A DNA stretch of 64,000 nt, from positions 381,061-445,060 of the forward strand of contig ML996695.1 in NCBI GenBank assembly GCA_010356995.1. Reading direction: 5' to 3'. The notes under the pieces were generated by a model, which was not told the DNA's origin, made no database searches, and was given only the letters and a program-made list of their open reading frames with translations. The position numbers were made by a program, and so were the translations under genes. This stretch comes from Trichodelitschia bisporula (Eukaryota). The first letter of the stretch is position 1. The number at the start of each line of letters is the position of its first letter. Positions 155 to 22,529 of the stretch are shown here, in pieces.

Positions 155-2062
155 ATGCCGAAATCTGTGCTCTCAGAGAAGCGCAAGCGGCTCTCTGGAT
201 CCGGCTCTGGTCCGCTACCTAAGGTCGACAATGCCACCAGTGAACCTCCGGCGAAGAAAATGAAATCGCTGCTCGACGATAGCGCATCCGAAGACAGTGA
301 TTCGGACAGCGGCGTAAAGCTGAACATAAACGAAGAATTTGCACGTCGCTTTGAACATAACAAGAAGCGGGCGGAGCGTCATAAATGTCAGTAGCCCATT
401 CACGTATCGCCGTTCCCAGCTAACGGACTTATAGTGGAGGAAAAGTATGGCCCCGCAGGGAAGGACGACGATGAAAGTGAGACATCTTCCGAAGATGAGT
501 CCGAAGACGACTATGCCGAGCTTGCGACTGGAGAGCTTGACGCCGTGATTGAGGACACTCTCAAGGCCATCCGCTCCAAAGACCCTCGAGTCTACGATGC
601 AGATCACAAATTCTACCCTGACATTGAGCCCGAGGGCGAAACCAAGAAGGTCGAAAAGGAGAAGCCAATGTACTTGAAGGACTATCACATGAAGAACCTC
701 CTGGAAGGCGGCGGCGAAGGAGAGGCTGCACCCCGCACATATGTGCAGGAGCAAGCGGATATCAAGCAGAGCATTGTGCAGGAGCTCAATGCTGCCGTTG
801 ACGGGGACGACAGCGAGGAGGATAACTTCCTGGTGCGGAAGTCCAAGCCCGAGCCGCAGAGGGCGCTTCCGATCCCTGATCCGTCTCTTGCTGAACGGGA
901 GCCCGAAACTTTCCTCTCCAACTTCATGGCCAGCCGAGCCTGGGTGCCGGGCTCATCCTCACGATTCCAAGCGCTCGAGTCCGACGACGAGGAGGAAGAG
1001 GCCCGTGCGGAAGCCTTTGAAATTGCATACAACCTGCGATTTGAAGACCCCAACCTCTCGAATCAAAAGCTCATGACCCACGCTCGTGATGCAGTGGCCA
1101 AAAACACCGTGCGCCGGGAAGAGAAGAGCTCTCGTAAGAAGGTGCGCGAGAGGGAGCAAGAGAAGAAGGAGGAGAGAAAACGGGAGAGGGAGCTAGAGAA
1201 GGCGCGACTCAAGAAATTGCGGATTGAAGAGATGGAGGAGAAAGTCAAGTTAATCAGAGAGGCTGCTGGAGCAATGGGAAAGGCTGTCAATCTCGAGGAG
1301 TGGGCAGACGTGCTCGAGCAGGATTTCGACAGTTCGCAATGGGACGAGGAGATGCAGAGGCGGTTTGGAAAGGATTACTACGACGGCGGCGAACAGGGGT
1401 CTGATTCGGAAGTGGAAGAGGCGGAAAAGAAGCACAAGAAGCCGAAGAAACCCCAGTGGGATGACGATATCGACATCAAGGATCTGGTCCCCGAATTCGC
1501 GGTGGAGGAGGCGGTCGTTCCACCGGTGCTGTCGGACGAGGATGCAGAGGAAGAAAAGGTTGCCCAGAACCACAAGAAAGCTCTGGCGGATGCTAAAAGC
1601 GCGGCCCGGCGCGATCGCCGCCTTATCGAGGCGCTAGTGGATCAGACGCTACCGCTTACTACTGCGGATGCAAGCTCTGCCTCGGTTGCTCCTTTCCGCT
1701 ACCGTGAGACATCGCCGACAACCTTCGGGCTTACAGCTGCGGACATCCTCGCCGCGGACGATGCGCAGCTCAACCAATTCGTGGGCCTCAAGAAGCTTGC
1801 CGCCTTTCGCGATCCTCAGCGCAAGTCCAAGGACAAAAAAAAGCTCGGGAAGAAAGCAAGGCTTCGTCAATGGCGAAAGGAAACATTCGGGAGGGAGGAC
1901 GGTCCGCCGCCAGAGGCAATCTTCGACCCCAACGCCCTGCAGGCTATCAATGAGTTTCCTTCTAAGAGGAAAGAGTCGAGCGCAACTGCGGGTGCACCGC
2001 CAGGCGAAGAGAAGGCAAAGCGGAAGCGCAAGAAGAAGTCGAAGGATGCTGTGGTTGCATAG
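155..2062 (+). CDS. KRI1: KRI1-family 40S ribosome biogenesis protein (2 exons; intron 387-434)
   Basis: Exon 1 has LNINEEFARRFEHNKKRAE. The intron GTCAGT...CTAAC...TAG restores frame to LEEKYG. Motifs IRSKDPRVY, YNLRFEDP, FRYRETSPTTFGLTAADILAADDAQLNQFVGLKKLA. Confidence 0.93.
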
Positions 2063-2542
2063 AGCAGAAGCGCGTTTCTCAGCTCCTTATTACTTGGATT
2101 TCTTGATGTCAGCGCATGGCGGGGCGGCGACGTAATTTGCCTACAATGTCGGCATGGTCATTTGGGGGCATAAAAAGGTACTTAGTAAGGCCGTAAAGCC
2201 GAATGTTAGATCTTTGGGCCTCCCACATGTGAATGCATGTGCGTGTGCGTTCTCGCCAGATCCTCCGAAGCTAGCCAGGCCGTTGCACAGTGACGACCCT
2301 CCTGCCCGGTGGCTGTCCCGCCACTCGCACTTTCCCCGCTTCTAGCCGTTCCGGCAAATATTTCCGCGCTTACTACGTAGCAGCAAGAATGCATCGATTG
2401 GTAACTCTTATGCTGACATGCCACGATCGTCCATATAAGGGGGAACGGGGATCTGGACTCGAAACCGGTACTACTTTAGATCCGATAAACTTGTCCAGAC
2501 CAGCCAACATCTCTGCATAGCACCATCTGTTCGATTATCAGC

Positions 2543-4756
2543 ATGGAAGCCCACGTGCAAAGTCTACCTGAGAATATTCCTCTGGGCTTGTATCTCTGGC
2601 TCAGGTCCGTGCAATTGATTGGCTGTAGAGAGCCCAGCATAACGAGTCTAGGATCCGCCAGATTGGCATCGGCACAGTTCTGGTAGGGCTTTCGTCTCCC
2701 CATGGTACGACCACCGACTGAATGGTAAAGGGCGTTCCTGGAGACTTTAACCTCGAGCTGCTCGATCACATCTACAATGTTCCCGGGCTCAGGTTCGTGG
2801 GCAATGCCAACGAGCTCAACGCTGCCTACGCAGCAGACGGGTATGGCCGCATCAACGGAACGCCAGGCGTATTCGTTACGACGCATGGTGTGGGCGAACT
2901 CAGTGCTGTGAACGGTGTATCTGGCAGTTTATGTGAGAGAGTCAAAGTGATTCACGTCGTTGGCCAGACTCCGCGCCCGCTCCAGCAGGCAAAAGCCATG
3001 ATTCACCATTCAATCGGCGATCAGCCGGATCACCAGGTACGCTCCATCTCAAGATCTAAGGTAGTAACTGATCGTGATGTAGCTGTACAATAAAGTCTCG
3101 AAACCCATCCGCCTCACAGCAGCCGAATTGTGGGACGTTGAGAACGCACCTGCCGAGATTGATGTAAGTCCCCGGCGGTCTTCCCCGAAACCACGCTTAT
3201 GGTTTCCAAGCGTGTGATCAGGGAGTGTGTTATCAGCTGCGGTCCAGTCTACATTTTCATGCCGATCGACATGTCCTCGGAGCCAGTGCCTTCGTCATTG
3301 CTTTCCACGCCCATCGACTTCAGTCCACCCATAGATTCGGATGCTCAAAACCGTGCTGTCGAGGCTATTGTCGGAGCTTTGCGCGAGGCTCGCAGTCCAT
3401 GCTTGTTCGTTGATGCCCTGGTCCAGCGCTACGACGCTCGAGAGGACTGTGCTGCTCTTGCGAAGCGACTCCGTGTGCCGGTTTACTCGACGCACATGGG
3501 CAAAGCGACGGTACGGAGAATATAATGTGCTCAATTGAGTGGCGGCTGACACCGGACTTTAGGTTGACGAGACAGAAGAGTTCTACGCGGGGATATACCA
3601 CGGTCAGGTGGACGATAAGGCGATTTGTGAGGGTATCGAATCGAGTGACTGCGTTCTTGTGCTGGGTAGTGTTAATGCCGATACCAACTCTGGTGGATTC
3701 ACCCGGAAGATCAGGAAGGATGCGGAAGTTCAGATAAATCCCAACAATGTGGTGGTACGTTCACATCCCTCTCTTAGTTGGTGGCCGTCTGACGTACGCG
3801 TAGGTGAAAGGAGAACGCTACGATGGCATCGCCATAAAGCAGGTTCTTTCTCTCTTAGAAGACGCGTTGCAGGGCGTCGAAGTCGCACGGGTCAAACCTC
3901 CTCAGGTGCTACCAAAGCCGCTGCCAGTCGACCATGCGGCAAAGAACCTGACGCAATCCTGGATCTGGAGCAGAATTGCCGCGTTTCTGAAGCCGCACGA
4001 TGTCGTCATGGCAGAGACGGGAACAACATTGTTCGGATTGACGCCAGAGAGGATGCCTAGCGATGTCAGGTACGAAACCGCCGGATTGCAAAGCGGAAAC
4101 TAAATGGGAGTAGATTCGTTAGTCAAGCCTATTACGGCTCCATCGGCTACATTTTCGCCGCCTCCTTGGGCATCGAACTGTCATTGGAAGACAGCCACCA
4201 CGAAAAGGGGACCCCGAGAGGACGAACGGTTTGCGTGACAGGCGATGGAAGCATGGCGCTGACAATACAAGAGTATAGCCCCATGCCACGAAGATGAGAT
4301 GAATGAGCTAACTGTTTAAAGAGTCGGCACAATGATCAGCCAAGGCCTCAAACCGGTAGTCGTTGTGTTGAACAACAAGGGATATACGGTTGAGCGTGTC
4401 ATCCACGGAGCCCTGCAGCGTAAGTTCAGGCAATGCCAGATGGCGTTCTCAATCTAACCACGGCAGCGTACAACACGACGCCGAAGACGAACTATTCGCA
4501 CTTGCTACCGCTGTTCGCGCATCCGCAAGCAGATCAGTGCTTCCACAAGGCCGTGACGAAGGAGGAATTCGTCAAAGTGTTCGAGAAGGCGGAGCTGGCA
4601 GATCCACAAGTAACGCACCTCGTCGAACTAGTGCTCGATGCGATGGACTCTCCGTGGCGATTGACCAAGCAGCTTGCGATGAGAGGCGAGGCGGGCGTAA
4701 AGTACTTGACAGATGTTGGGTTCATTGGGCCGGGCAAGGTGGGCATTGGAGGTTGA
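2543..4756 (+). CDS. Thiamine-diphosphate-dependent 2-oxoacid decarboxylase (pyruvate decarboxylase family), about 10 exons
   Basis: GVPGDFNL, NELNAAYAADGYGR, GVGELSAVNG, MIHHSIG, AETGT, YYGSIGY and the TPP motif GDGS...NNKGYTVER. Nine short GT-AG introns (approx. starts 2605, 2683, 3037, 3164, 3511, 3755, 4070, 4273, 4420) join the ORF fragments. Confidence 0.92.
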
Positions 4757-6100
4757 AGTTGAGGATCCTGACAGACGGATCAGGAGAGATATAAGCGTGG
4801 AAGTCGTATACTCCGTATGGTGTGGTCGGAAATTCCGTGGGTTGCTATTCAATATTTTCTTAGCCTGGAGCATGGTAGTACGGTAAATGGCATCAGCATC
4901 AATAAGGACTGCCCCATGGACGTAAGAGGCGTCCGGGCTTCCTCGAGTCCGCCATGCAAGCCACACGGCAGGCCACGTGAGAGCGCTCCACTTCGGCGCA
5001 TTATCGCTTTGTTTGCCAAGGCCCGGGGGATTAGGGCACGAGACACAAACAAAAGGAAAAGCAACAAAGGCCGAATGAGACACGCACCAGCAAGCTTCTC
5101 TACAGCAGCAGAAATGCAGTATTTATCGAGGCCCATTGGGTGGCATTATGGGTTTAGCTGCAAAGCGGTGCTGAGCTGGACTCGGGGTCTGGAGCCAGTC
5201 GGGGCATGTGGTGGACGACGCGGCCTACTGCGTGCTGCACTGATGCGCTGGGTGCGGGGCTAAACAAACAAAAACAGGGCTGGCGGGCCAACGGGATGTG
5301 TCATAGGTTGAGAGACGAGACGAACGAAGCTCCAGAAGGATGACCATGTTTCTGTAGAGATTGATAGTAGAGAACGAGTCCAAGAAAGAGTCCTCTCCTT
5401 TGCCGCGAATGAGGCTCTTATGGACTGAAGAGACCGGATGAACGGTGGGGACTGCTTGAGGTCTGAGCCTTGCCTTTTGACAGGCGGGAGGTGATGAGAC
5501 GGGACGAGGATATGCCGGCTTGGTGAGAGGAAAGCGAAGCAAAGCAAAAGAGGCTTGTTACTTGGCTCTGCAAGACGATAGGCACCCCGATAGCCCCCCG
5601 GCAGCTGCAAGCGGGCCAGCCAACTTCAACCCTGACAACCATTTTCCCCCTCCTACCCAAAACAATTCTATACCGTCTCTCCTACTCACGAATACGAAGC
5701 CATAATTCTCCGCAAAAACCATTCCCTTCTTCGGCCATCTTTACCGCCTTCACGCGCACTTCAATTTCAATCGCTGTCTGCCTGACATCCCCTCCCATAC
5801 TTCGTTCGACCCCGGCCCGCGTGCAATTTAAGCAATAAGCGCTCAGGGGGGAGTGGCACCTTTCTTGAGGCAACGGACAAAAAAAAAAGAAGGCGAACAC
5901 ACCAGCACCCTCCGCGCCCGCGCATTGATGTCTTGCGCGCAAACCTCGCTCATCTTCGCCGGCTCACAACCAACGCGTATCCTTTGCACTCAGCGTCGCC
6001 AGCTCACCATCCCACCCCGCGACTGATCTGTCTCCCTTCCCCGCATTCCCCGCAGGCCACGAACAGACCCTGAGTCTGGTCTGGCGCTGCGCACCGCGAC

Positions 6101-8772
6101 ATGGACGGATCTCCTCCTCCGCCGCCGCCTCCACATGGCAAGAACCCTCGGTCGGCGCGGGGCGGCCTGCCGGACGGCAACTATGACATATTCATCATAC
6201 CCCCAGACAAAGCAGGCGGCGGCTTCCTCTACCTGCCCTCTCTCGCCCTAAATCCATGGAGCTTCGGCATCGGAATGGCGGCTGGCAGTGTCCTCACGTT
6301 CTTATTCATATCCGTTTGGAGTGCAATATCGTTGACGGTGAAGGGATGGGTGTCTTCGCAGACGACCGGCAATGTCGTGATGTGCGGGACGGTAGGAGCG
6401 GCCGCCTGGTTCTTCGGGAAATATCAAGAAAACTTGACCGCCGGCTTCCAGACACCACCCGGCACCAGCAATAACCACGGCCCACCTCCATCGGGCTCTG
6501 CACCGCCGCCGAATGCTTCATATGGCACCGGACCGAACGCACCCAACGGCGCGCCCAATGGCGGAGCATACGGGCCAAACACAAACCCGGGACAAGGTGC
6601 AGGCTATGGCCAGGGGCCTTCAGGGTCCAACTGGGGTCCAAATCCCCAGGGTGCAGGTGGATATGGTCCTGGTGCGGGCTATGGGCCGCAGTACCATCAA
6701 GCCCCCGATCCGAACTCTGCGCCTCCGCCTCCTCCGCCTCCTCCGCCATCACCCCCTCCTCAACCGGAAGCTCGTCCTCCTCCTCCGCAGCCTGAACCTC
6801 AGTCACCTCCGCCCCAACCTCAGGCTCAGGCACCTCCGAAGCCCAAAGCACAAACCCCTCCGGAGCCCAAGGCTCGGCCTCAGCCTCCGCCCTCACCTCC
6901 GCCGCCATCAGAGCCGGAGACACCCCCGCCGCGGCCGAAGCCGGAGCCTCGTTCTACCCCGAAGGCAGAGTCACACCGTTCATTCAAGCCGGACCCTCAC
7001 CGCCGGGTACCGCGCTCAGAGCCGCCTCCCAGTGAATACCCTGCGGACGATGCGCGATCCGAACGCACCGAGCGTTCCGAACGCTCCGAACGCCCCCGCA
7101 AGCCTCGGTCAAACAGCAATGCGTCGGCTAGCTGGGAGAAGGCGAAGGAGGAGACGCGGAAGCGGGCCGAAGATCGTAAACGTGCTGAGGAGGAACGCAT
7201 GAGGCGTGAGGAAGCGCGCAAGAAAGTCGAGGCAGAAGAACGTAAGAGAGCAGAGGAAGAGCGGCAGGCGCGAGCGGCAGCCGAGAAAGAGAAATGGGAG
7301 AAGCAGCTTGCTCGTGAGCGTGAGGCCCGCGAGCGTAAGGCCCGGGAGGAAGCGGCTCGCGAGAAGGAGCGCAAGGAGCAAGAGGCCAGGGACAAGCTGG
7401 AGAGGGAGATGCGAGCCCGGCTTGAGCGGGAGAAGCGGGAACTCCAGGAGAAGATGGAGCGAGAACAGCGAGAATTGCGCGAACGTCTCGAGCGGGAGGC
7501 CAGGGAGCGTGCGGAGCGCGAGGCGCAGGAGCGGAAAGAGAGGGAGGAAAAGGAACGACTTGAGAAGGAGGCCGCCGAACGTGAGGCTCGTATCCGGAAT
7601 GCTCGCGAGCGCATTGAGAAGGCAAAACAGGAGCGTGACGCGAAGGAGCGGGCAGCCAAAGAGCAGGCGGAACGGGAGAAGGCGGCACAAGAGAAAGCGG
7701 AGAAGGAGAAGGCTGTTGCCGCATCCGCTGCCAAATCCCCTCCTGTCTATGGTGTTGGCGAGCGTACCAACCCATATGCTCGTGAGCCCTCAGTCGTCAC
7801 CGTCGTCCCTCCTCCGGCGTCTGCTAATGGTTCAACCACCAGCGGCATGACTACTCCGAAGGCTGCGTCAACGCCAAGGACCGTGGTCACGTCCGCTTCC
7901 ACGCCGACTGCGACGCCAACGGCAACTCCTACGGCCCGGTCCGCCCCTGTCGGTCCCCGAAATCCCGCGCCCGCTGTCGACCCGGCTCCCAAGCCGACCC
8001 CTACTCCACGGAAACCGGTTCCCGCTCCAGCATCCGACGGCATGTCGGAAAGCACTGCTGCCCGAGAGCGAAAGATGTACGAAAAGCCCTCCGCTCAGAG
8101 TTATGTTGGCACATCAACAGCCAATTCATATCGTCCATACGACAGCCCGCCAGCCGATGCGAAGCCGAAGCCGACTGGTTCCCAGTCGTCCTTTTACAGC
8201 TCTTACTCCTCGTCATATGCACCCTCGGTGACAACCCAGCAGACCACTCCCTCGAATGGTAGTGGATATGCGACGAACAATCCGAACAAGGTTGTGATCA
8301 AGGGGGTGTACCAGTTCACCGATCTGCACCCTAAGATTCCGGTCATGAAGCTCATTGCTGGCGAGGATGGCATCTCGGACGGATTGGTCCTCAAAATCAC
8401 GACAGAGGGGCTGTTTATTGACGACTATTTGTCGGGTGCGGCGCTGCGAGAGTGGGATGTCAAGGCGTGGTCCATGAAGGGCGTCGAGGTAAGCATTCTA
8501 CTTAGCAGCTTCCCGTAGAATCGGATGCTAACTGTACTCAGACGGCAACCAAGGGTAATCTCCACATTTTCCGTGTCAACCAACGAGACATGGAGAACAC
8601 CAAGTTCCTCTTTATAATGCTCTCAAGCGAAGCATGGAAAGTAGAGCAGGGGATCAAAACTCTCAGCAGCGGCTCCATCATTCGGAGTTTCACGAAAAAC
8701 ATAATGAGCAATGCCGAAGCGACGAAGTGTCTGGAGATGCTGGGCTTCGGCGCTTATACTCGGGCCTCCTAG
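6101..8772 (+). CDS. Fungal hypothetical protein: N-terminal hydrophobic segments, Pro-rich region, long E/R/K coiled coil, globular C-terminus (intron 8489-8541)
   Basis: 805-codon ORF. The intron GTAAGC...GCTAAC...CAG joins it in frame to the 8590-8772 ORF. Non-repetitive blocks GNYDIFIIPP..GGGFLYLPSL and DGLVLKITTEGLFIDD..REWDVKAW. Confidence 0.85.
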
Positions 8773-9490
8773 CTGTGTGCGGAATGCACGCTGCCCCCTT
8801 GGGAGGATTCTACATTCCACCCCCCTTACCGCCATCTGGAGAGATACGATATGACGATCATTTTGGCGAGCGTTGCGCGGGAGTTTCTTTTGTGTTTGCC
8901 GGCCATTACCGCTCATTTTCAGCGTTGCCCGCAACATACCCCACTCACAGCGAGCGTTGTTGACTTGCGGCTATGTTACAGTGTTACCTCTTGGTTCCTC
9001 AGCGAAGACGAGTTGCGCGAGTGTAATACCCCGGGGACGGTTGGACGGAAGACGGTTACGGAGTTTTATGTGTGGCGGTGCATGTGAGCGGAGCGAAAGC
9101 TTAGAGTCTTCAGGGGCGTCTTGATGCTGCGTTGTTTTGTGGTGTACGTAGAACGCTGACCCACTCTCTCTGCTGCATAGCGTTGCATCGATCTGGGGAC
9201 GACGGATAGGCGTTGGATGTTGCCGCATTTTTGGAGATTGGGGCGCTGATGTAGGCGAAATGCCAGCTTGTTGATATGTGCTGCAGCCGTGAATCTCCCG
9301 AGCCGTGCATATGCCTCGTGATTGTCATGTCCCACTAAACACACAAGGATAGCAATGAGTACTCCAGCCAACAACGCGAAACCAACTCTGTTGATACAGA
9401 ATACTAAACTCGCAAAATCCAACCCAAACGCTACAGCAAATCAAATCCCAAAACCCAACTGCTTAAAACCCAGCATATACAATCTCACAA

Positions 9491-9515
9491 CCCCCCCCCC
9501 CCCCCCCCCCCCCCC
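9491..9515. repeat. C25 homopolymer (G25 just 3' of the stop codon of the SelK-like gene)
   Basis: Uninterrupted run of 25 C. Confidence 0.95.
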
Positions 9516-9518
9516 TGC

Positions 9519-9888
9519 TTACCCACACGACCCACAACCTCCCCCAAGAAACGGCACCGGCACCCTCCCCCCCCCTCCCGTAGGTTTACTCTTCGGCTCC
9601 GGCGCCCCGGGATCCATCCTGAACCCGACCCCCTCGCCCTCGCCCCTATGCCAGCGCTGACCCGCCAGCGCAGACGGTGCGCGCTCCGGGCGCACAGACA
9701 GCGGGACGCTATATGGTGAGTTGCGGGCCGCGGCGTAGGCGTCGAAGGAGAAGAGGCTGGTGAGGTAGAGGGCGATGAAGCGGAGGGGCGTGGAGAGGGG
9801 GTTGAAGCTCCTGCTTGGGGGTTAGTTGGGTGGGAGATGGGGAGGGGGGGAAGTACGATGAGCTGGGTGCGGTTTTGACGTCGGCCAT
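9519..9888 (-). CDS. Small membrane protein, selenoprotein K/SelG-like Cys homolog (107 aa; exons 9888-9857 and 9810-9519)
   Basis: Manual splice across GTACTT...CTAAC...CAG gives MADVKTAPSSSSFNPLSTPLRFIALYLTSLFSFDAYAAARNSPY...GGGGRVPVPFLGGGCGSCG*. One hydrophobic segment, Gly/Pro-rich tail, terminal CxxC. Confidence 0.8.
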
Positions 9889-13546: not shown

Positions 13547-14505
13547 ATGTCCCTCTCCCACCTCCGGCGACCAGCCGTCGCACTACTCCGCCAACCCCCA
13601 CAATGGCGCCCCTCCCTCACACATACACGGGCCCTCACCCTCACGCGCACCCTCCAAGCCCGCAGCGGCGCCCGCGGCGACCCAATGGAATACATGCGGC
13701 GAGGGGGTGAGTCGCAGCCGGCGCCGCGAGCCCAGGCGCGCGAGAGGGACGAGAGTAGCCTCCCGAAGGACGTCGGGCTATTCCCCGGTAACACCCTTTC
13801 CCAGTCCCCCCCCCACATCTCCGTCTAACGCACTCAGACACCCTCGTCATGCCAACGGGCCGCGCTCTCCCCTCCCTCATCTCCAACCCCCGCGACCGCC
13901 TCTTCCTCGAATACCAGCGACTGGTGCAGCGCCTCAAAGACGTAGGCAGCCAAGTACACACCCGCTTCGTGGCCTTCCGCGACCAGAAACAGGCGCCTAA
14001 GTTGGGACGCAAGACGATAGTCCCCGCTGCCAAGAGCTTGCATGTGCAGTTGTACGACTCGCTAGCTGCCGGCGATGTCGATGCGTTGCGGAGCATCTGC
14101 GGCGAGAACCTCTTTACGCAGTATGCGGCGAGGATTGGCCGCCGTGGACAGCACGACCGCTACGAGTGGACCTTGTTGAGCCACTCGAACCGGCCTCGCA
14201 TCGTTAGCAACAAGATTACGACGCTCCCGCTTCAGATTGGAAACAAGCCGGTTGCCTATCAACAGGCCGTTGTACTCATCCGCAGTCGCCAGCGGCTACG
14301 CAAGGGAAGGTACGATCCACTTGAGAAAGAGGTCAAGTGGAAATCTCCTTCTACGGAGAAGGAAAAGACCATCCCCGAATACATGGTGGTGCAAAGGCGC
14401 TTCATTCGGGATCAGTGGGAGCCGTGGATAGTCTGGGGCTTCATCACCCCGACAAGCGTCAAGGGGCTAAGGGAGTCGTTGTCGCAGGTCAACCTGGAGG
14501 AATAG
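13547..14505 (+). CDS. Mitochondrial Tim44-like domain protein (mL45/Mba1-like); intron 13788-13837
   Basis: Arg/Leu/Ser-rich presequence MSLSHLRRPAVALLR. C-terminal LYDSLAAGD, QQAVVLIRSRQ, EYMVVQRR, WIVWG pattern typical of Tim44-like folds. Confidence 0.75.
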
Positions 14506-14926
14506 AGCACAAAGGCGCCTATCTGGCGGGGAGAGAGCATGCCATGCTGGCAAATGTACAACAGTCAACAGATATATCTTTACTCGATGGCTACTGTAAA
14601 AAGCACCCTGTAGAGATCCCTCATTGTCCACGCAGAAACAGAGACCGAAACTTGGGCTGCCAATGTCACAACCCTCAACGCAAAAGCATAATAAAAACAA
14701 ACGGACAACATCCATAGCTACTTGCTCAACCGATAATCCACGGGTATCATCTCCGCATGCCGCCCCATTGTACATCCCAAAACGTAACCCAGCCATCACA
14801 AAACAACAAGGATGCGACTTTCTCATGTACCGATCCACCAGGTATGCTTCTCGATGAGAAAGTTGTCAAAGCCGAAAACCTCTTGCCGGGGTGGCGGGCG
14901 GGGGACTGCGACGAGTGACTTGTAGA

Positions 14927-15680
14927 CTAGAAACCGTGGACCTTTATGGTCTTGGAGTCAATGTCGAGCCCATCCTTGTCGATGAGGAAGTCCTTGACAG
15001 CATTGCGCTGATCGCCCTGAAGCTGAATCACGTCGCCAGCCTTCTCATCGTTCACGATGGTGCCATTGCAAGCAAACCGCTTCTTGATGACCTTCAGAAT
15101 CTTCTTCAGGTCAAACTTGTTGGGAATGCCTTCGATCGTAGTCAGAGTCTTGCGACCATTCCGCTCTGTAATGGGTGTTAGTTTGTGGACGGGCAAGAAT
15201 CTGCCGTTAGAGGCAAGAACTCACGCTGAATGCGGATATGGATATCTACGCCATGGTTAGCCTTTGCTGACAGGGGTATTCAGGGAGCGGGGTTACTAAC
15301 TCGTCTGCTGGGTTTTCTGACTAGTCTCTACGGTGTCCTGATCGGCTGCATCCGCAAAGGGATCTATGGCGAGTTAGCAGGTGCGTTCCAGCGTACAAAG
15401 GAGCAAGTGCAGTGCCGCCGGATGACGCCGATAGGTGACGCCGAACGCCGTGTCTCAGAAATGCGCCAAGTAAATACCGGATCCGCACTTGGACGACAAA
15501 GGACGGCGATGTAGGGGAGCATGAATGCGCAAACGTAGTGTAACATACCGAAAGACCTGGGCAACGTCAGTATCGATCGCTTCAAACTGTAGCAAGGAGG
15601 ATTTTGGAGATGAAGCGGGGGTGGTGGCAGAACGGATGGAAAAGCGGGACTTACTTAAGGTTCTGGATCTCCGTGGACAT
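14927..15680 (-). CDS. SUI1: Translation initiation factor eIF1 (118 aa; exons 15680-15655, 15556-15549, 15363-15301, 15245-15225, 15165-14927)
   Basis: Assembled MSTEIQNLKSFDPFADA...IHIRIQQRNGRKTLTTIEG...FACNG...IQLQGDQR...IKVHGF*. All introns are GT-AG with branch points and the exon lengths sum to 357 nt. Confidence 0.97.
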
Positions 15681-15683
15681 ACG
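15677..15683 (-). promoter_or_regulatory. Suboptimal start-codon context CGU-AUG-U of eIF1 (autoregulatory element)
   Basis: Minus strand reads CTCGT ATG TCC, the same poor context known for yeast SUI1. Confidence 0.8.
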
Positions 15684-16728
15684 AGATCTGTGGCGGTGCC
15701 TGGACTAAGTGTGTTGGAAGAGAAGGCTCGTGGAGACCTGCTGAGAGCTGGACTCGTGGGCTTGTTTGTTTTGGAGAGCGTGGGGATGTGGATGGAGTTG
15801 CTTTGGAGAGAATGGAGAATCACACGAGTTGTAGGTTCAGGGTTGAGTGATGGAGGGGAGGGGGGGTGGGTTCGAGCCAAGGGCTTCTTCGGGCAGCTTT
15901 TAATCCCGCCGGGTGGCCAGTGCTTGAGGGGAGGGGAGGGGGCAGTGTGAATGGATGACTGTGATTTGACTGGGGTGTCTGGGGCAAAGAATGGGAGGAG
16001 CGGAGAGAGAGAGAGAGAGGCGTGAGAGGGCAACACACATGACTATGGGGCTTAGATTGCTTGGCAAAAGGAAAGCTTGGTCAAAAGTGGCGGAGCATTC
16101 GAGAGACTGCCACTCACACGTGATCAAACCTGCCCCTCTTTCTTGTCTCTCTCGTCTTGTCTCTTGGGCAACGTCAACACTTCTCACTCCTCACTCCTCA
16201 CTCCTCACTCCCAATCGAGACGTCCTGATCTCGGACATTCGGAACAACTCCCGTCGGGCGAACGTGGACGCCTGCTATGGCCATCTGCTACGTACGGTAC
16301 GGTACATCGTTGCTCAAGGCTGGAAGAAGCTCTGTCCTGGCCTGTGAATCTGTGTAGTAGCTGGAAGATCATGTTTCGCTGTTATCGACACTTCGTACTG
16401 TAAATGGGCAACGTCTTCGCAGGAGGCAGCTCGGCCGTGCCTGTCCAAGTTTATGAGACATTTGCCTCACTGGCTATGATTCGATATGCATGTCTCTGCC
16501 AGGGACTCTCGGCATATTGGTCCCATTCCCAGGCATCAAGCCGGCAAGCCGATGCACAATCAAATCAGAGAACATATCGTGATATTCCTTTTGAAGACTG
16601 TCGCTCAAATCATCAAGTTGACAAACATCGTTAACCTATTCAAAGTCTCATGACAAAATATCAAGAAGCTAAGCGCGTTCCAAAGTGCCAACTTTTGTCA
16701 AACATCACCGGGCACAGTGCCGTCGGTC

Positions 16729-19700
16729 TCAAGCCCCAGTCCTCGGATGCAGAGTGAGATCCGACAGATGCGTGAGAACGCCAGGCTGAAGCCGTGAAGC
16801 CAATCCAGCAAACTGCCCCAAACCACCCAAGATCCCACCAACCCTCTGACCAGCAACAAGCCGCGACCCAAGCACCTTGTCTCCCCCAGCAGCGTCCAGC
16901 GTCGAAATCCCCACCTGAGCCTTGTCCAGCCCGACGGGAACTTTGAGCCGCAACCGGCCTTCGAGCACCAGGCCACCAGGCTGGACCATGTTGAACGAAT
17001 GCGTGTTCACCTTACCGGCAACCATCGACGTAACATCGAGCTTGGCAGAGCTCAGCCTCGCCGCCACGCTCTTGAGCTCGATCAAGCCAAGGCCAGGCTT
17101 GGGCAGCAGCGTAATGGCACCCGGAGCCGTGGCCGTGAGATCGAACTTCATGACTACCGAGTCATGCGTCATGCCCATGCGCTGCATCAGCGTGATGGTG
17201 TGCGTCTTCGCCCGCGCCGACGCAACCGTGATTTCGCTGTTAACCGTGCCCAGCGCCTTGGCTTCGATGTGTGTCGTCTCGCCCTGGTCGATGGGCGCTG
17301 AAATGGTAAACTGCGTGGTGCCCGATTTGACCAGTTGCTGGTGCGTGCCGCCGCCCTGCTTGCCGCGCACGCTGATCTGGAAGTTGTTGGTTGGCTGGAA
17401 GGGTGTAAGGCGTGATTCCAATGCCGTGAGCGGGAGGAGTGGGTTCAAGTTGATGGGCGTGCCGGCTGACAGCAGGCTCGAGAGCGCTGATGACGCGGGC
17501 TGCATCGGCAGGATGGAGGCATTTGGCGCTTGATATCCGCTCGTGAATTTTAGCTCCCCAACACCGCCGTCGCCGAACATGATGGGTGTGTTGACAAAGT
17601 ACCCGTCCAGCTTGCGCCCGGCTTGCAAGGCGCGGATGGCGCGGCCGCTGTGCGCGCTCAGGTCTCCGCCATCTGCCGAGTTGAGGCTTGCCGTCTCCGT
17701 GTCGTTCCCCATAACGATGATGGTGCCTGCGAGGATGAGGAGAATGGCATCCCAAACCGGAGTGCGAGGCGCCGCGTTCAGGACGCTCCATGGCATGTAG
17801 TGGAGCCTGCCCCCACTCCATTCGGCTCCTGCGTACAGATTGCCGCCATCATACTTCCACGTGTTGTTGGTATTGTCAACCTCAATTGTTCGGATCTGGT
17901 CCGGGAAGTTGGGATCATGGATTGAAATCTTCCACGGCCGCGAGGATGAGTCCCAACCGATTGGATATATAGTGTGTGGGGCACCGCTAAAATCCACATT
18001 CTGAGAGATACAGAGGACGGGGTGATCTCCGCTGTTGAAACGATCGCGACTGTCGTTGAAGACTCGGACTGGATTGTGCGTATTGCCGGCCAGGAAGGTG
18101 CCGACGAACCACCAAATAGGAGCTGCTCCCACCTGGTACAAGTGCTTCACATTGAACACTGGCTGAAGCTGATTCCAGTCACCGAAGCGGTTGATCGGAA
18201 GACTGAAAAGACTCAGACCATGGCGAGCGTAGATGGCCTCGAGAGACATGCCGAAGCAGTTTCCGCCCTTCGCCAGGTGCTTCGCAACGGCTTCGTAAAA
18301 CGCCTTGTCCAGCCAATCCAGCGGGTCGTACACCTCCGGCGACGAGTCAACATCGCGGAACGCTTCAGCGTAGGTTTGATAGCTGATCGGATCGTTGCCC
18401 CTGTTCCTTGCTCCGGCGCCCCAATACTTCTCGAGCTCGGTGAGCGCGGATAAGTTGACCTGGGGGTGGACGGCAGAAGTGATGTTGTTGATTTTAGCGA
18501 AACCTCCGGAGCTGAAGATACCATTGTTCTCTCGCAGACCCCAGGCATTGGCGGAATTGAGCTGCTTGGTCCATGTACCGAGATGATCGTCACCTCCGCC
18601 AAATGGCGCGCCGCCGTCCGAGTCCCAGACATCCAAAACAACGGTGATTTGCTTCGTCGGGTTGGGGGTCATGACGGTGGGGAACTCAATGTTGACATCC
18701 ATGTCATTGCGGCCATCCCAGGAGCCTGAGGACGGGAACCGCTCTCGATAGAGTGTGTTGTTGTCTTCGTTGATTGTCGCGCTGAAGTAGAGGTCGTTCT
18801 GGCCCATGAACAGCCCTTCACTCTCCACCGTGTTGAGATTCCCAACGAAAAATTTGAAGGGGTTGATGATCTGAATGGAGCTGAAGCTGCCGTACCAGGT
18901 GATGGCGCCGTTCTCGAAGCCATTCGTGCGGCCGCCGCCTGGGATATCCATCTCATCGGTCACTGGGAGGCCCAATCCGCTCAGAGGCCCCTTCAAGTCC
19001 ATCCATTTCGCACGAATGTCGCCGTAAATGATGTGGGCATTTGTCTGCGGCGACCAGTAGATGTCGCAACCTTCGAACTTGCTCAGGCGCACGTTCCGCT
19101 CCACGTTGCCATCCTTGACGCCTTTGACAATCATCTCATCAGACAGTGGGAAGCCCCACTTCGTAGGCCCTCCGGTATTCTGGTAGGCATCCCGGATGGA
19201 ACCTATGACAATATGTGCGCTCGGAGAGCCGTTGCGGTAGAGAGCAGTCGCTCTCTGCATCCGCTGAGAAACGCCGTTGGGAACATTCTGTGGAGGTTCC
19301 ACCGGCAATCCCCAGTCCTGGGACTCTCCAGTAGCTTCATAGTGCAGGTAGAGTTGAGCCGTCACTTCGAAGGCGCCAGTGGCAGACGACCAGTAGATAC
19401 CGCCTCCTTGGAACAGACTCTTCCGGGCACCTTGGACGTAGGCAGAGGTCTCGTCAGTGACGAGATATCCGAGCGCGGATCTGGTGGCATCCGAAAGCGC
19501 CCTGTATCTCTGCAAAATGATGCCGTACATGAGGAAGGCAGAGCTGGCAGCGGAGTGGTACATGATGACACCTTGGTTGTAGTTCTGACTCCAGGTTGCA
19601 GTCACGGCGCTGAAGGTAGTATTGGACGTGGGGACGCCCATGTCCATAACCAGGCGGCTCATTTCCAACTTGGTGGTGATGAACCACACCGGTGAGAAGC

Positions 19701-20331
19701 GTTGACCATCCATGATTGGCTCCAGCTCAATCGGGATCCCGAAGCCAACGCGGACGGAAGCCAGCTGGCCCATGAACCGATTTGCAGCGTCTTTGCCGCC
19801 AATGACGATAGTCTTGACTGCGTCGGAAAGCGCAATATTTCCCGTAGTTCCGAAGCCGTGGCAGCCAGCAGGGTTTCCATCAATGAAAAGAAAGAGCGTG
19901 TCCATGTCGTATGCAAACTGAGCCAAATGCCAGCCGGTTGTGAGGGTCGGGCTGGAGAAAGTGTCTGTCCCGCGCCAGGCGGTACTCCCCATGATTTTGA
20001 CAGACACGACCAATTTCACCGAGTTTCCTGTGCCAACAAGCTCCAGCATGAAAGGGAGCCGTTCCGATTCAACAAGCGTCTGACGTCCGGGTAAGGCATC
20101 AGCCTGAAAGACAACCGAGCCATTGAACCGAGCTTCGTTGATGACTTCCACGTTTTTGATATCTACCTGGATAGGACCGGACCCCAACCGAGCGGCCTGC
20201 GGGAAGTTTTGGCCCTGGAAAGCGCCTGGTCCGGTACCAATCGTGGCATCGGCGGCGAGCGTAACTGGGAGAGAGCCATCTGGATTGGCAACTTGCTTGC
20301 TCGTGAAGACATAATCGAGGAAATAGCTCAT
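16729..20331 (-). CDS. Intronless ~1200-aa multidomain protein: LamG/ConA-like + LGFP repeats + C2-like + putative papain-like (Cys-His-Asp) domain
   Basis: Single ORF with first ATG at 20331. GWHLAQFAYD..LFLFIDG (LamG-like). Repeats LGYLVTDE..FQGGGIYWS, WGFPLSDE..FEGCDIYWS, LGLPVTDE..FENGAITW. VWDSDG..DDHLG. GGNCFGMS...PHTIYP...IHDPNFP. Confidence 0.85.
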   Translation of the reverse strand: MSYFLDYVFTSKQVANPDGSLPVTLAADATIGTGPGAFQGQNFPQAARLGSGPIQVDIKNVEVINEARFNGSVVFQADALPGRQTLVESERLPFMLELVGTGNSVKLVVSVKIMGSTAWRGTDTFSSPTLTTGWHLAQFAYDMDTLFLFIDGNPAGCHGFGTTGNIALSDAVKTIVIGGKDAANRFMGQLASVRVGFGIPIELEPIMDGQRFSPVWFITTKLEMSRLVMDMGVPTSNTTFSAVTATWSQNYNQGVIMYHSAASSAFLMYGIILQRYRALSDATRSALGYLVTDETSAYVQGARKSLFQGGGIYWSSATGAFEVTAQLYLHYEATGESQDWGLPVEPPQNVPNGVSQRMQRATALYRNGSPSAHIVIGSIRDAYQNTGGPTKWGFPLSDEMIVKGVKDGNVERNVRLSKFEGCDIYWSPQTNAHIIYGDIRAKWMDLKGPLSGLGLPVTDEMDIPGGGRTNGFENGAITWYGSFSSIQIINPFKFFVGNLNTVESEGLFMGQNDLYFSATINEDNNTLYRERFPSSGSWDGRNDMDVNIEFPTVMTPNPTKQITVVLDVWDSDGGAPFGGGDDHLGTWTKQLNSANAWGLRENNGIFSSGGFAKINNITSAVHPQVNLSALTELEKYWGAGARNRGNDPISYQTYAEAFRDVDSSPEVYDPLDWLDKAFYEAVAKHLAKGGNCFGMSLEAIYARHGLSLFSLPINRFGDWNQLQPVFNVKHLYQVGAAPIWWFVGTFLAGNTHNPVRVFNDSRDRFNSGDHPVLCISQNVDFSGAPHTIYPIGWDSSSRPWKISIHDPNFPDQIRTIEVDNTNNTWKYDGGNLYAGAEWSGGRLHYMPWSVLNAAPRTPVWDAILLILAGTIIVMGNDTETASLNSADGGDLSAHSGRAIRALQAGRKLDGYFVNTPIMFGDGGVGELKFTSGYQAPNASILPMQPASSALSSLLSAGTPINLNPLLPLTALESRLTPFQPTNNFQISVRGKQGGGTHQQLVKSGTTQFTISAPIDQGETTHIEAKALGTVNSEITVASARAKTHTITLMQRMGMTHDSVVMKFDLTATAPGAITLLPKPGLGLIELKSVAARLSSAKLDVTSMVAGKVNTHSFNMVQPGGLVLEGRLRLKVPVGLDKAQVGISTLDAAGGDKVLGSRLVAGQRVGGILGGLGQFAGLASRLQPGVLTHLSDLTLHPRTGA

Positions 20332-21657
20332 GATGAAAGTTGCTGTTCTCAGTTTACTCAAAATGGAAGGTGGACTGCTGTAAGTATGAGGCAGCGGCTT
20401 CCGGTTCTTTTAAGTTCAGCACTCCATCGCCTCGTGGAAGCCCAGGACACATCGTAGAGGTCATTTCAGCCCCCATCGCCTTCAGCAGAGGACTGGATGC
20501 GCCAAGATGGACTGACCCGGAGCTGGATAGCCACATTGCCCTCATGGTCGAGGCGGAGCATCATGTGGGGGATTAACGGCAGAAACGCACCAGGATTGGA
20601 CCATGAATGGTAACGAGTGCTGTGAGGGGTTGATAGAAGTGGTGAGAGGCAGCATCTGCCGTACAGCGGGACTGAAGTTGTAAAACTGCAGGAGTACATG
20701 TTCGTGGAGCAGCGCCAACTTTTTGTATTTTATCCAAGTGATGTGGATCTTACCTTCCTGTCATGTACGTAGTGGAGAGATAGGTAAGTTCTAGCTTAGA
20801 GATGTAACTTGAATGCTCTGTATTTTACGACTTTCAAGATAGCCACGTTCAAACTCTTGGGGAAGAGGGCGTTTGTTCGCTAACGGCGATCAGAACATTA
20901 GCAGATATCACGAAGCTCCGCCAAATACTGGTAGGCATCCTCATTGCATAGGATTCCATGATGGAACAGCTGAAGGAAGAGGCGGGGTAAAGAGCTTGGC
21001 TAGAAAGCTTGTATTAGCAACTGCGGTAGGCGGAGAGTCCGCTAAATATCACATTTGATGCATCTAGCCGCAGCTGAAAGTCGAAAGCAAGGAATATGCG
21101 AGGCAGTAGACTGCTCGAATGAAACTGCCTGCGTTCATGTGCAACTTTGAAATGCACCAATACTCCTGGGAGATTTCAGCCATTTTCCTGTACATGGAAA
21201 GGATCACAAACCGGCCCGTGTTACGTAGGTGCATTCAATACTCCCTCACGTTCGTGGCCACCTGTGATGTAGGCACGAGCGAAATATGATGCTTGTATGT
21301 GGATTTGAACGACTGCATGGAGTGAAGCTGCAGGACATCTGCTTTACGAGCCACCCACCAAGCTGCTGGCATCGGTTAGGACTCAGAGACGTCTCTGTTC
21401 AGTGGTGATGCACGGTTTTTGTCTCGAAGACTACAAGAGGGACGTTGAATCGAAGTGGAGCCCAGGCCCGGCCTGGATGTACCAACCCGAAAAAGCAATT
21501 AGCGCCAGATTTGGGGGCGGAAACCCTGCATCTCCACGTGCATTCGCGATCGCGCTTACAGCACCGCGCTTACGCGACGTGACGTCCATATCTACTCCGA
21601 ATTATCAACTTCTTGATAGCAATCCATCAATACAGTTCTCTCAGACTCCCGATCATC

Positions 21658-22529
21658 ATGCCACCACGCAAACGAGCTGCTGCCGCGGACGCTGAAGCAC
21701 CGCCCACAAAGCAGCAAAAGAAGACCTCCACCCCGGCTCCCAGCCAGCGAATAACGCGCCAAAGCGTGAGGTCCGGAGGCACAGCAACACCTGCAGTCGA
21801 AGCTGTGACTGAAGGCAAGGCAACAAAGGCGAAGCGGGCGCCTGCACCCCGAAAAGTCACGCCAGCGCCGTCAAAGGCAAAGAAATCCAAAGAGTCCAGA
21901 ACATCACCGCCTTCCAATGCAGCCCCTGCATCTGCAGCCGCTGGAGACCCAGAACGACAACCGGGGGAGAGGCGCTACTGGCTCATGAAGGCTGAGCCCA
22001 ACTCTCGGATTGAGAAGGGTATCGACGTCAAGTTCTCTATCGATGATTTGGCGGCAAAGACGGAGCCGGAGACTTGGGATGGAATCCGGAACCACGTGGC
22101 CAAGAACAACCTTCTTGCCATGAAGAAGGGTGACTTGGCCTTCTTTTATCACAGCAACTGTAAAGTGCCGGGAGTAGTCGGGATTATGGAGATTGTGGGG
22201 GAGGCACAAGTGGATGGTAAGTCTCACGTCCCGGAGGAGCGCCATGACTGATTTGCTCGATAGAAACTGCCTGGGATCCCAAATCGCCCTACTACGATCC
22301 CAAATGTTCATCTGATAAACCAAAATGGTTTTGCCCTTTGGTAGAGTTCAGAAAGAAGTTCAACACCATCGTGACGCTTGAGACGCTGAAGAAGGAATGC
22401 CAACCGGGGACGCCGCTTGCGAATATCCAGCTTCTTAAACTGAGCCGCCTCAGCGTCAGTAAAGTGTCAAGAGACGAGTGGGATCACATCATCAAACTGG
22501 CCGAACAGCAAGAAGCTGCTGGAGAGTGA
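21658..22529 (+). CDS. EVE-domain protein (thymocyte nuclear protein 1-like); intron 22217-22263
   Basis: YWLMKAEP, KFSIDDL, WDGIRNHVAKN, GDLAFFYHSNCKVPG, PYYDPK, SRLSVSKV; basic N-terminal tail. Confidence 0.93.

Follow-up and report, generated by a model that had tools for sequence, protein, structure and literature searches.

In the window, that is, the whole 64,000-nucleotide stretch of Trichodelitschia bisporula DNA that was analyzed, one long reading frame on the minus strand lies uninterrupted between an eIF1/SUI1-type gene and an EVE-domain gene, as the preliminary description had stated (Table 1). The stop-to-stop frame covers 16729..20409, with the first in-frame ATG at 20331 and no internal stops in the ORF. 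The flank on the SUI1 side is a C-terminal exon on the minus strand (14927-15220), identified by eye and presumably belonging to SUI1; the EVE-domain gene (Pfam EVE, E=5e-25) begins at 21658 on the plus strand. Eukaryotic genes flank the ORF on a contig of 1.06 Mb, within a housekeeping region, and the GC3 of the gene matches that of its neighbors, its composition being fully host-like.

Contigs assembled from RNA of a second study follow the genome without a break over 16132-20999, with the coding sequence unspliced. No run is recorded as RNA; X3 and X4 were assumed to be RNA, and spliced joints are present in their contigs, whose depth is unsuited to ranking expression. GT..AG joints are present at 15165/15225 and 15245/15301 in the SUI1 transcript and at 22215/22263 in that of the EVE gene. 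The earlier contrast between an intron-free gene and its spliced neighbors thus holds for the coding sequence but not for the upstream leader, which contains two GT..AG introns, at 21000-21052 (53 nt, retained in one X4 contig) and ~21165-21210 (46 nt). The leader has 23 upstream ATGs; it is possibly a 5'UTR of unusual length, or else part of another transcript that overlaps the gene from upstream.

Table 1. Features of the gene and its product, with positions in the window
Feature	Position	Strand	Residues or length	Basis
Upstream transcribed leader	20332..21436	-	1006 nt once spliced	X3 contig, 5206 nt
Coding sequence (P0001), uninterrupted	16729..20331	-	1200 aa + stop	ORF; colinear RNA contig
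Putative LamG/concanavalin-like head, conserved from residue 1, without signal peptide	19648..20331	-	1-228	alignment to relatives
Five LGFP repeats	18871..19647	-	229-487	Pfam PF08310
C2 domain with conserved acidic cluster D513, D570, D572, D581, D582	18457..18867	-	489-625	
Papain-like cysteine hydrolase domain (probable)	17782..18429	-	~635-850	
Candidate triad codons	18256-18258; 17974-17976; 17914-17916	-	Cys692; His786; Asp806	
Hydrophobic helix-strand element, conserved, not a membrane span	17710..17760	-	858-874	Kyte-Doolittle 1.85 over 19 residues
Beta-rich C-terminal domain, fold not recognized	16852..17382	-	~984-1160	
Gly-rich C-terminal tail, predicted disordered	16732..16809	-	1175-1200	pLDDT <50, model residues 281-306
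3' untranslated region	16132..16728	-	~597 nt	shares RNA contig with the coding sequence

Domains of the encoded protein

The architecture runs in the order LamG-like head, five LGFP repeats, C2 domain, papain-like domain and beta-rich C-terminal domain. Aligned with its relatives, the head shows 25-38% identity; the Pfam model Laminin_G_3 (PF13385) matched 21 of the 27 aligned full-length relatives (best E 6.7e-9), whereas no LamG match to the window protein itself was obtained at E<=1, and the proposed check against this model was therefore positive for the relatives only. The Pfam LGFP model (PF08310) matched the window protein in five stretches, scoring 132.4 bits where 22 is the cut-off (E=7.1e-39), and was above the cut-off in 27/27 family members, so that the absence of a profile match, named earlier as an outcome that would count against the gene's description, was not found, and the approximately five repeats placed at ~18890-19640 were borne out with slightly different limits. 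LGFP is described in PMC2447325 as tandem units of ~54 residues each, and the units of the window protein fit this length, their anchors (residues 231, 287, 340, 392 and 453) being spaced 53-61 residues apart.

The region following the repeats shows an eight-stranded C2 beta-sandwich fold that resembles cytosolic eukaryotic C2 domains, and no match to the Pfam C2 families was obtained for the window protein (E<=1) or for 27 relatives (E<=0.1). C2 domains are usually seen as a eukaryotic membrane-targeting module. The acidic positions are conserved among 120 sequences (D513 in 115, Asp or Glu at D570 in 119, D572 in 119, D581 in 109 and D582 in 107), and they may be equivalent to the Ca2+ ligands of synaptotagmin-type domains.

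In alignment with relatives, the papain-like region is the most conserved stretch of the protein. The candidate triad is nearly invariant, distant variants included (Cys in 131/132, His in 132/132, Asp or Asn in 131/132), and in the model the Cys (208) opens a helix (208-219), the His (302) is on a strand (302-310) and the third residue is at 322. The catalytic-domain assignment comes from one fold match. No membership in a described peptidase family was found by sequence in Pfam, in NCBIfam or by profile search of the PDB: NCBIfam matched 0 families, the PDB sequence-profile search with the C2 and protease alignment had 0 matches at E<=10, and a relaxed Pfam scan of 48 protease domains gave nothing consistent. 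The best match in that scan was to an unrelated helical domain, in 5 of the 48 (E 0.047). Residues 630-900 retrieved only hypothetical clusters without names from the ESM Atlas, a viral structure library had no match at E<=0.001, and when truncated or divided versions of the protease region were sought, only fragments of the same family came up. The domain is probably papain-like, a candidate peptidase of an undescribed family, and it is moderately likely to be an active cysteine hydrolase.

Downstream of this domain, a membrane span was considered for residues 857-875 and rejected, because exported variants keep the segment, and in them charged residues interrupt it. Within the family, sequences diverge most in the beta-rich C-terminal domain. 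The earlier suggestion that the protein may recognize bacterial or other foreign cell walls leaves aside two thirds of it, namely the C2, papain-like and C-terminal beta domains.

Distribution of the family and origin of the gene

The full architecture is present in 167 prokaryote species from many phyla and, among named fungal records, in three fungi, that of the window included. Relatives closest to the window protein (47-70% identity) are all members of the fungal clade, none being bacterial. The core of LGFP repeats, C2 and papain-like domain comprises 469 representative clusters and has no Pfam model; members of the papain-like domain family nearly always have LGFP repeats in the same protein, and in canonical members the C2 domain is placed between the two. 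No signal peptide was found in the full-architecture members examined, bacterial or fungal. Among relatives that share the core but lack LamG there are Sec, lipoprotein or TAT signals, RTX repeats or discoidin domains. In bacteria there were no conserved neighbors (the largest neighbor family was present at 4/78 loci) and no recurring theme among immediate neighbor ORFs (73/111 scanned), and PADLOC anti-phage defense models matched 0/27 members. A metagenome scan with the fungal-clade alignment yielded bacterial-like loci only, at <=50% identity, and 0 fungal-clade contigs. A search of the openly available literature found no paper that describes this architecture or fungal LGFP genes.

In three trees all eight fungal-clade sequences formed one group (support 98-100) inside bacterial sequences, and in two of the trees the nested position had SH-type supports of 95-100. 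AU tests under LG+G4 did not reject trees in which the fungal clade lies outside all canonical bacterial sequences (p 0.070 and 0.135). A species-tree-like order inside the fungi was not rejected either (p 0.138). An old transfer from bacteria to Pezizomycotina is the best reading, and it is very likely that this is a real gene of bacterial origin, given its occurrence in 167 prokaryote species against three fungi in named records, the nesting of the fungal clade in three trees, its position on a large contig among eukaryotic housekeeping genes, and its transcription. Two marks by which transfer is recognized, a wide distribution in donors with a patchy one in recipients (as judged from named fungal records) and physical integration with expression in the recipient, are seen here. 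That the gene came from bacteria, as first proposed, is accordingly well supported, but an actinobacterial donor is only suggested, by the Nitriliruptorales MAG that is the nearest named row to the fungal clade, since the AU tests do not reject a non-nested placement.

Two other origins were weighed. An ancestrally eukaryotic or fungal gene lost in most lineages, or a move from fungi to bacteria, would accord with the AU results on both the outside placement and the order within fungi, and with the host-like composition; the disparity between prokaryote and fungal occurrence, bacterial export signals in the wider LamG-less superfamily, an intronless coding sequence beside spliced genes and the branch supports for nesting all speak against it and make it highly improbable, and the broad, vertically inherited fungal orthologs that would have been expected were not found in named fungal records. 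Bacterial contamination or a chimeric assembly is already effectively refuted. DNA contigs span both junctions of the gene, so the chimera raised as a concern in the preliminary description did not appear; these runs are possibly the source of the assembly itself and are thus not independent evidence, and beyond this nothing was found in favor of contamination. Against it stand the eukaryotic genes on both sides, RNA contigs of the other study that link the coding sequence to a leader with spliceosomal introns, the host-like GC3, and nearest relatives that belong to the fungal clade and are not bacterial proteins. The gene is a genuine, transcribed Dothideomycete gene and no assembly artefact; one of its neighbors has 98% identity to a protein of Trichodelitschia bisporula.

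Proposed working and comparison with known systems

The best overall explanation, to which a probability of roughly 0.6 is given, is a transferred stand-alone bacterial gene for a glycan- and membrane-docked cysteine hydrolase, with function read from sequence and models. The ancestor would have been a stand-alone bacterial gene that moved long ago into Pezizomycotina. The LamG and LGFP modules would anchor the protein to a polysaccharide, with a cell-envelope glycan as the likeliest choice, the C2 domain would attach it to an anionic lipid surface when Ca2+ is bound, and the papain-like domain would cleave a peptide or amide bond of the docked target. Because canonical LamG-headed members examined are without signal peptides, the site of action may be inside the cell, or outside after non-classical release. 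An envelope or cell-wall target is a tentative suggestion.

Two other workings were weighed, the first with the same origin. A cytosolic, calpain-like protease triggered by Ca2+ would be brought by its C2 domain to the inner face of the membrane when Ca2+ rises, with LamG and LGFP sensing ligands (e.g., fragments of glycan or cell wall) or holding the substrate. The absence of signal peptides from all canonical members examined, the likeness of the C2 fold to cytosolic eukaryotic C2 domains with its conserved acidic cluster, the stand-alone gene with no secretion partner and the resemblance of a papain-like core plus C2-type domain to calpain are consistent with this. However, LamG-less relatives with the same core are exported, so that the core works extracellularly there, LGFP partners among the database matches are extracellular wall hydrolases, and free Ca2+ in the bacterial cytoplasm is low; this working is rather unlikely. 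A non-enzymatic lectin or adhesin, implicit in the first description, would give the papain-like domain a structural or binding role. It draws on the facts that sequence models recognize only LGFP, plus LamG in relatives, and that the catalytic assignment hangs on a single fold match, but near-invariance of Cys, His and Asp/Asn over 132 sequences, distant variants too, in the region where conservation is highest renders it improbable, and a simple surface lectin does not fit full-architecture members that lack signal peptides.

Modular cell-wall hydrolases of bacteria and phages also combine LGFP repeats in tandem with a domain of hydrolase type: among the LGFP-only database matches are fusions with GH25 lysozyme, Amidase_2 or SLT transglycosylase, and PMC8223927 lists LGFP among wall-binding domains in lysins of Gram-positive hosts. 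The window protein differs from these in its unclassified, papain-like catalytic domain, in a C2 domain between repeats and enzyme, in its LamG head and 300-aa C-terminal domain, and in canonical forms without signal peptide. With staphopain-type papain-like cysteine peptidases (clan CA) there is no sequence-profile relationship (~12% identity), and the window protein has no prodomain, its papain-like domain being one of several in a chain of 1200 aa. In calpains a papain-like protease core is paired with a C2-type beta-sandwich; they depend on Ca2+, are cytosolic and have no signal peptide. The window protein, which has no signal peptide either, would resemble them in the other traits; in the window protein, however, the domain order is reversed, penta-EF-hand and PC1/PC2 split are lacking, and no sequence similarity was found, while calpains are without LamG and LGFP modules. 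GH25 lysozymes and Tae/Dae amidases are bacterial antibacterial enzymes transferred to eukaryotes, alike in being stand-alone hydrolase-type genes of bacterial origin that are patchy in eukaryotes, integrated and expressed; their eukaryotic copies are secreted with demonstrated activity, whereas the present family is known here from sequence and models.

Transfer from bacteria to fungi is well known, so the gene provides a further example and no surprise; the protein is of more interest than the transfer, in that it reveals a family of papain-like domains that has so far gone unannotated. Should the enzyme act on bacterial envelopes, the fungus would have borrowed an antibacterial tool; should it act in the cytosol, it would be a new calpain-like design. 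In a bolder and quite unlikely view, the LGFP-C2-papain-like core would define new, widespread Ca2+- and glycan-gated cysteine proteases, whose LamG-headed form, without signal peptide, would serve as both sensor and effector inside the cell: it would sense cell-wall-type glycan fragments, be carried to the membrane by C2 and cleave a target there. It would be a ready-made module of one gene that a few fungi would have taken from bacteria for use against bacteria in the manner of innate immunity. That the gene is a single unit without partner genes may explain both its crossing between kingdoms and its continued expression.

The locus and its transcription

The LGFP gene of Trichodelitschia bisporula (a Dothideomycete, order Phaeotrichales) lies on a contig of 1,060,084 bp as a single unbroken ORF, with its frame shut upstream at 20409 and the ATG at 20331 as the earliest possible start. 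The preliminary description had proposed an uninterrupted 3.6-kb ORF between SUI1 and an EVE gene, with about five LGFP repeats at ~18890-19640, and each of these was borne out; the HMMER comparison with Pfam LGFP that it suggested gave a clear match in five stretches (E=7.1e-39). The flanking exon read by eye is presumably that of eIF1/SUI1, and more distant neighbours are Kri1, an RNA methyltransferase, Med12/SRB8, Vps53 and a homeobox gene. The Vps53 ORF shares 98% identity with a named T. bisporula protein.

Coordinates, in the window, of the LGFP gene and its flanks
Feature	Position	Strand	Intron ends	Basis
LGFP ORF, 1200 aa	16729-20331	(-)
LGFP repeat anchors (residues 231, 287, 340, 392, 453)	18871-19647	(-)		alignment and mapping
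eIF1/SUI1-type exon (presumed name)	14927-15220	(-)		read by eye
SUI1 splice joints	15165/15225, 15245/15301		GT..AG	RNA contigs
EVE-domain gene, neighbour of the LGFP ORF	start 21658
EVE gene splice joint	22215/22263		GT..AG	RNA contigs
Leader intron 1, 53 nt	21000-21052	(-)	GT..AG	RNA contig
Leader intron 2	~21165-21210	(-)	GT..AG	RNA contig

Contigs from two short-read DNA runs span 14500-22399 and 15868-22500 with zero differences, bridging both junctions with no chimeric join seen; these runs are possibly the assembly's own source and thus not independent support. Two runs from a separate study are RNA, their contigs splicing out introns in the SUI1 and EVE genes. One RNA contig (5206 nt) follows the genome unbroken over 16132-20999, then skips two introns and ends at 21436, showing that the coding sequence is transcribed and intron-free; a contig of the second RNA run keeps the 53-nt intron. 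Contamination or a chimeric join as the source of the LGFP gene is effectively excluded. The earlier picture of an intronless gene among spliced neighbours therefore stands for the coding sequence, but not for the RNA upstream of it (20332-21436, minus strand), which is spliced to a leader of 1006 nt with 23 ATGs and a longest upstream ORF of 78 codons. This leader could serve as a long 5'UTR with a regulatory role; alternatively, it is an overlapping transcript in its own right, whose divergent promoter region (21436-21577) is shared with the EVE gene. In the SUI1 gene, contigs of both RNA runs also skip 288 bases at 15364-15653 (minus strand) with non-canonical ends (TA..TT, plus strand) and 5 letters between; the gap may reflect a micro-exon with an intron on either side, or an artefact of the contigs.

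Protein architecture and candidate catalytic domain

A search of 5.8 billion proteins recovered 28 relatives that match over all or nearly all of their length (E<=7.5e-170); the other 23 matches cover the LGFP region only. The canonical order is a LamG-like head, five LGFP repeats, C2, a papain-like domain and a beta-rich C-terminal domain. An alignment of 27 members is conserved from the first residues, and its invariant positions include Cys692, His786 and Asp806. Pfam found LGFP in all 27, Laminin_G_3 in 21 and no other consistent family; the LamG model proposed earlier thus fits most of the aligned members, but has no match in the window protein itself, which is an LGFP protein by membership tests. 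Residues 485-905 are best conserved (40-59% identity; 33-36% in two distant rows), the N-terminus shows 24-38%, and over the C-terminal 300 residues identity between the window protein and the aligned bacterial rows is 17-26%.

An AlphaFold model of residues 485-905, built on 59 sequences, was confident (pLDDT 88.4, pTM 0.84). In it Cys692 starts a helix, His786 starts a strand and Asp806 lies just after the next strand, and both geometry and conservation are as expected for a papain-type triad: across 132 aligned sequences the Cys is kept in 131 and the His in all. As third residue, 119 of 120 canonical members have Asp, while the 12 distant variants have either Asn (9) or Asp (3). Asp/Asn exchange at this position occurs in papain-type triads. 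Fold tests of the C2 region returned C2, and acidic residues of its loops (D513 in 115, D572 in 119 and D581 in 109 of 120) are kept, which may be equivalent to the Ca2+ ligands of classical C2 domains. Profile searches of Pfam, NCBIfam and PDB tied the catalytic domain to no described family, and by sequence the protein matched none of the described families of C2 domains or peptidases. A membrane span at hydrophobic residues 857-875 was rejected; charged residues break the stretch in exported variants, so it is read as a buried element.

Proposed working and family context

The LGFP gene reveals an uncharacterised family of predicted hydrolases; that the enzyme is an active cysteine hydrolase has a probability of about 0.6. 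Domain order, triad, acidic C2 cluster, the constant tie to LGFP, the lack of partner genes and transcription in the fungus are observed, and the working outlined next is inferred. The papain-like domain would cleave a peptide or amide bond, and the C2 domain would contribute Ca2+-dependent lipid binding. The LamG and LGFP modules would dock the protein on polysaccharide; LGFP is counted among the wall-binding modules of lysins (PMC8223927) and was first described in cell-surface proteins (PMC2447325). Among known designs, LGFP-bearing wall hydrolases and staphopain-type peptidases come nearest, with calpains close by analogy only. Open-access text yielded no account of the full LamG-LGFP-C2-papain-like architecture or of fungal LGFP genes.

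A catalytic-domain profile matched 469 representative clusters (E<=0.001), 193 of them at the stricter cut-off of E<=1e-30. Among the 46 scanned matches that carry the domain at another position, LGFP is present in 40 and LamG in one, beside FIMAH (5), RTX repeats (2), and a TAT signal, discoidin and Cu_amine_oxidN1 (1 each). A crude hydropathy screen, backed by visual inspection, assigned Sec, lipoprotein or TAT signals to about a dozen of these LamG-less forms; the LamG-headed forms examined, bacterial and fungal, have no export signal. In the exported variants, at least, catalytic domain and LGFP repeats are predicted to act outside the cell. An envelope or cell-wall target is a tentative assignment, less likely than not, and a cytosolic, calpain-like role is somewhat less likely still.

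No partner gene accompanies the family: the largest neighbour family is common to only 4 of 78 bacterial loci, immediate neighbour ORFs (73 scanned of 111 listed) have no functional theme, and PADLOC gave no model match. In single cases a KAP-family P-loop NTPase (L013, 2832-5489, Frateuria) and a NACHT-domain protein (L059, 3022-5211, a cyanobacterial MAG) adjoin a homologue; both families are frequent in defence islands. In two Chitinophagales loci (L011, 9947-10990; L038, 2428-3483) a second ORF of about 350 aa directly after the main gene resembles the LamG-like head only (residues 28-277). Homologues in two overlapping frames in a betaproteobacterial MAG (L040, 5929-9690 / 7742-9592) and Luteimicrobium album (L033, 6001-7578 / 5889-9740) suggest a frameshift, by pseudogenization or sequencing error. 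P0053, a 128-aa protein in the 90% cluster of the relative P0004, is recorded on 15 contigs, hinting at a repeated or often fragmented piece of gene in one source.

Distribution, direction and age of the probable transfer

Of 175 candidate stretches on prokaryote contigs (one genome per species), 167 code for a relative; they come from at least a dozen phyla, whose members are intermixed on the tree. Among named fungi the gene occurs in the window's organism, in Trichoglossum hirsutum (58% identity) and in Pyrenochaeta sp. MPI-SDFR-AT-0127 (47%), and five further proteins (37-70%) group with these. This 8-member clade has support of 98-100 in three trees: FastTree on 93 rows (support 100, with a stem of length 0.46), a second FastTree run on the core shared by 132 rows with a LamG-less outgroup, and IQ-TREE (LG+C20) on 49 rows. 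Successive sisters in IQ-TREE are the proteins P0218 and P0228 (99), one protein with a Nitriliruptorales MAG (100), and a Limnocylindria, Gaiellaceae and betaproteobacterial group (95); in the core tree the first two of these steps have support of 99 and 98.

The bacterial origin proposed earlier is favoured by the wide prokaryotic distribution and by this suggested nesting, which would point to an actinobacterial-like donor; a tree uniting all non-fungal canonical rows, a group defined post hoc after tree inspection, is nevertheless not rejected by AU (27 rows, dlnL 30.4, p 0.070; 49 rows, dlnL 29.5, p 0.135). Provided that the outgroup is bacterial, the direction of transfer would be the same with or without nesting, since a bacterial ancestor is then parsimonious under either topology; treating the outgroup as bacterial is supported by LamG-less relatives, which include a form in Calothrix sp. 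NIES-2100 (L078) and forms with bacterial export signals. The gene is real and expressed and very probably derives from bacteria, which makes it one more, fairly clean example of transfer from bacteria to fungi.

GC3 of the ORF (0.69, vs 0.59-0.79 across annotated neighbours) is host-like and points to an old event. The window protein is nearer the Geoglossomycete copy than that of the other Dothideomycete, in contrast to Vps53, which shares 70-75% identity with its counterparts in both; a species-tree-like arrangement inside fungi is nevertheless not rejected (p 0.138). The pattern may stem from a single old entry with many later losses, from hidden paralogy or from spread between fungi. The sole archaeal copy (L071, a Nitrososphaerota MAG, match 1752-4865) falls inside a Prolixibacteraceae (Bacteroidota) clade and more likely reflects a mis-binned contig or recent transfer than a branch of the family proper to archaea.
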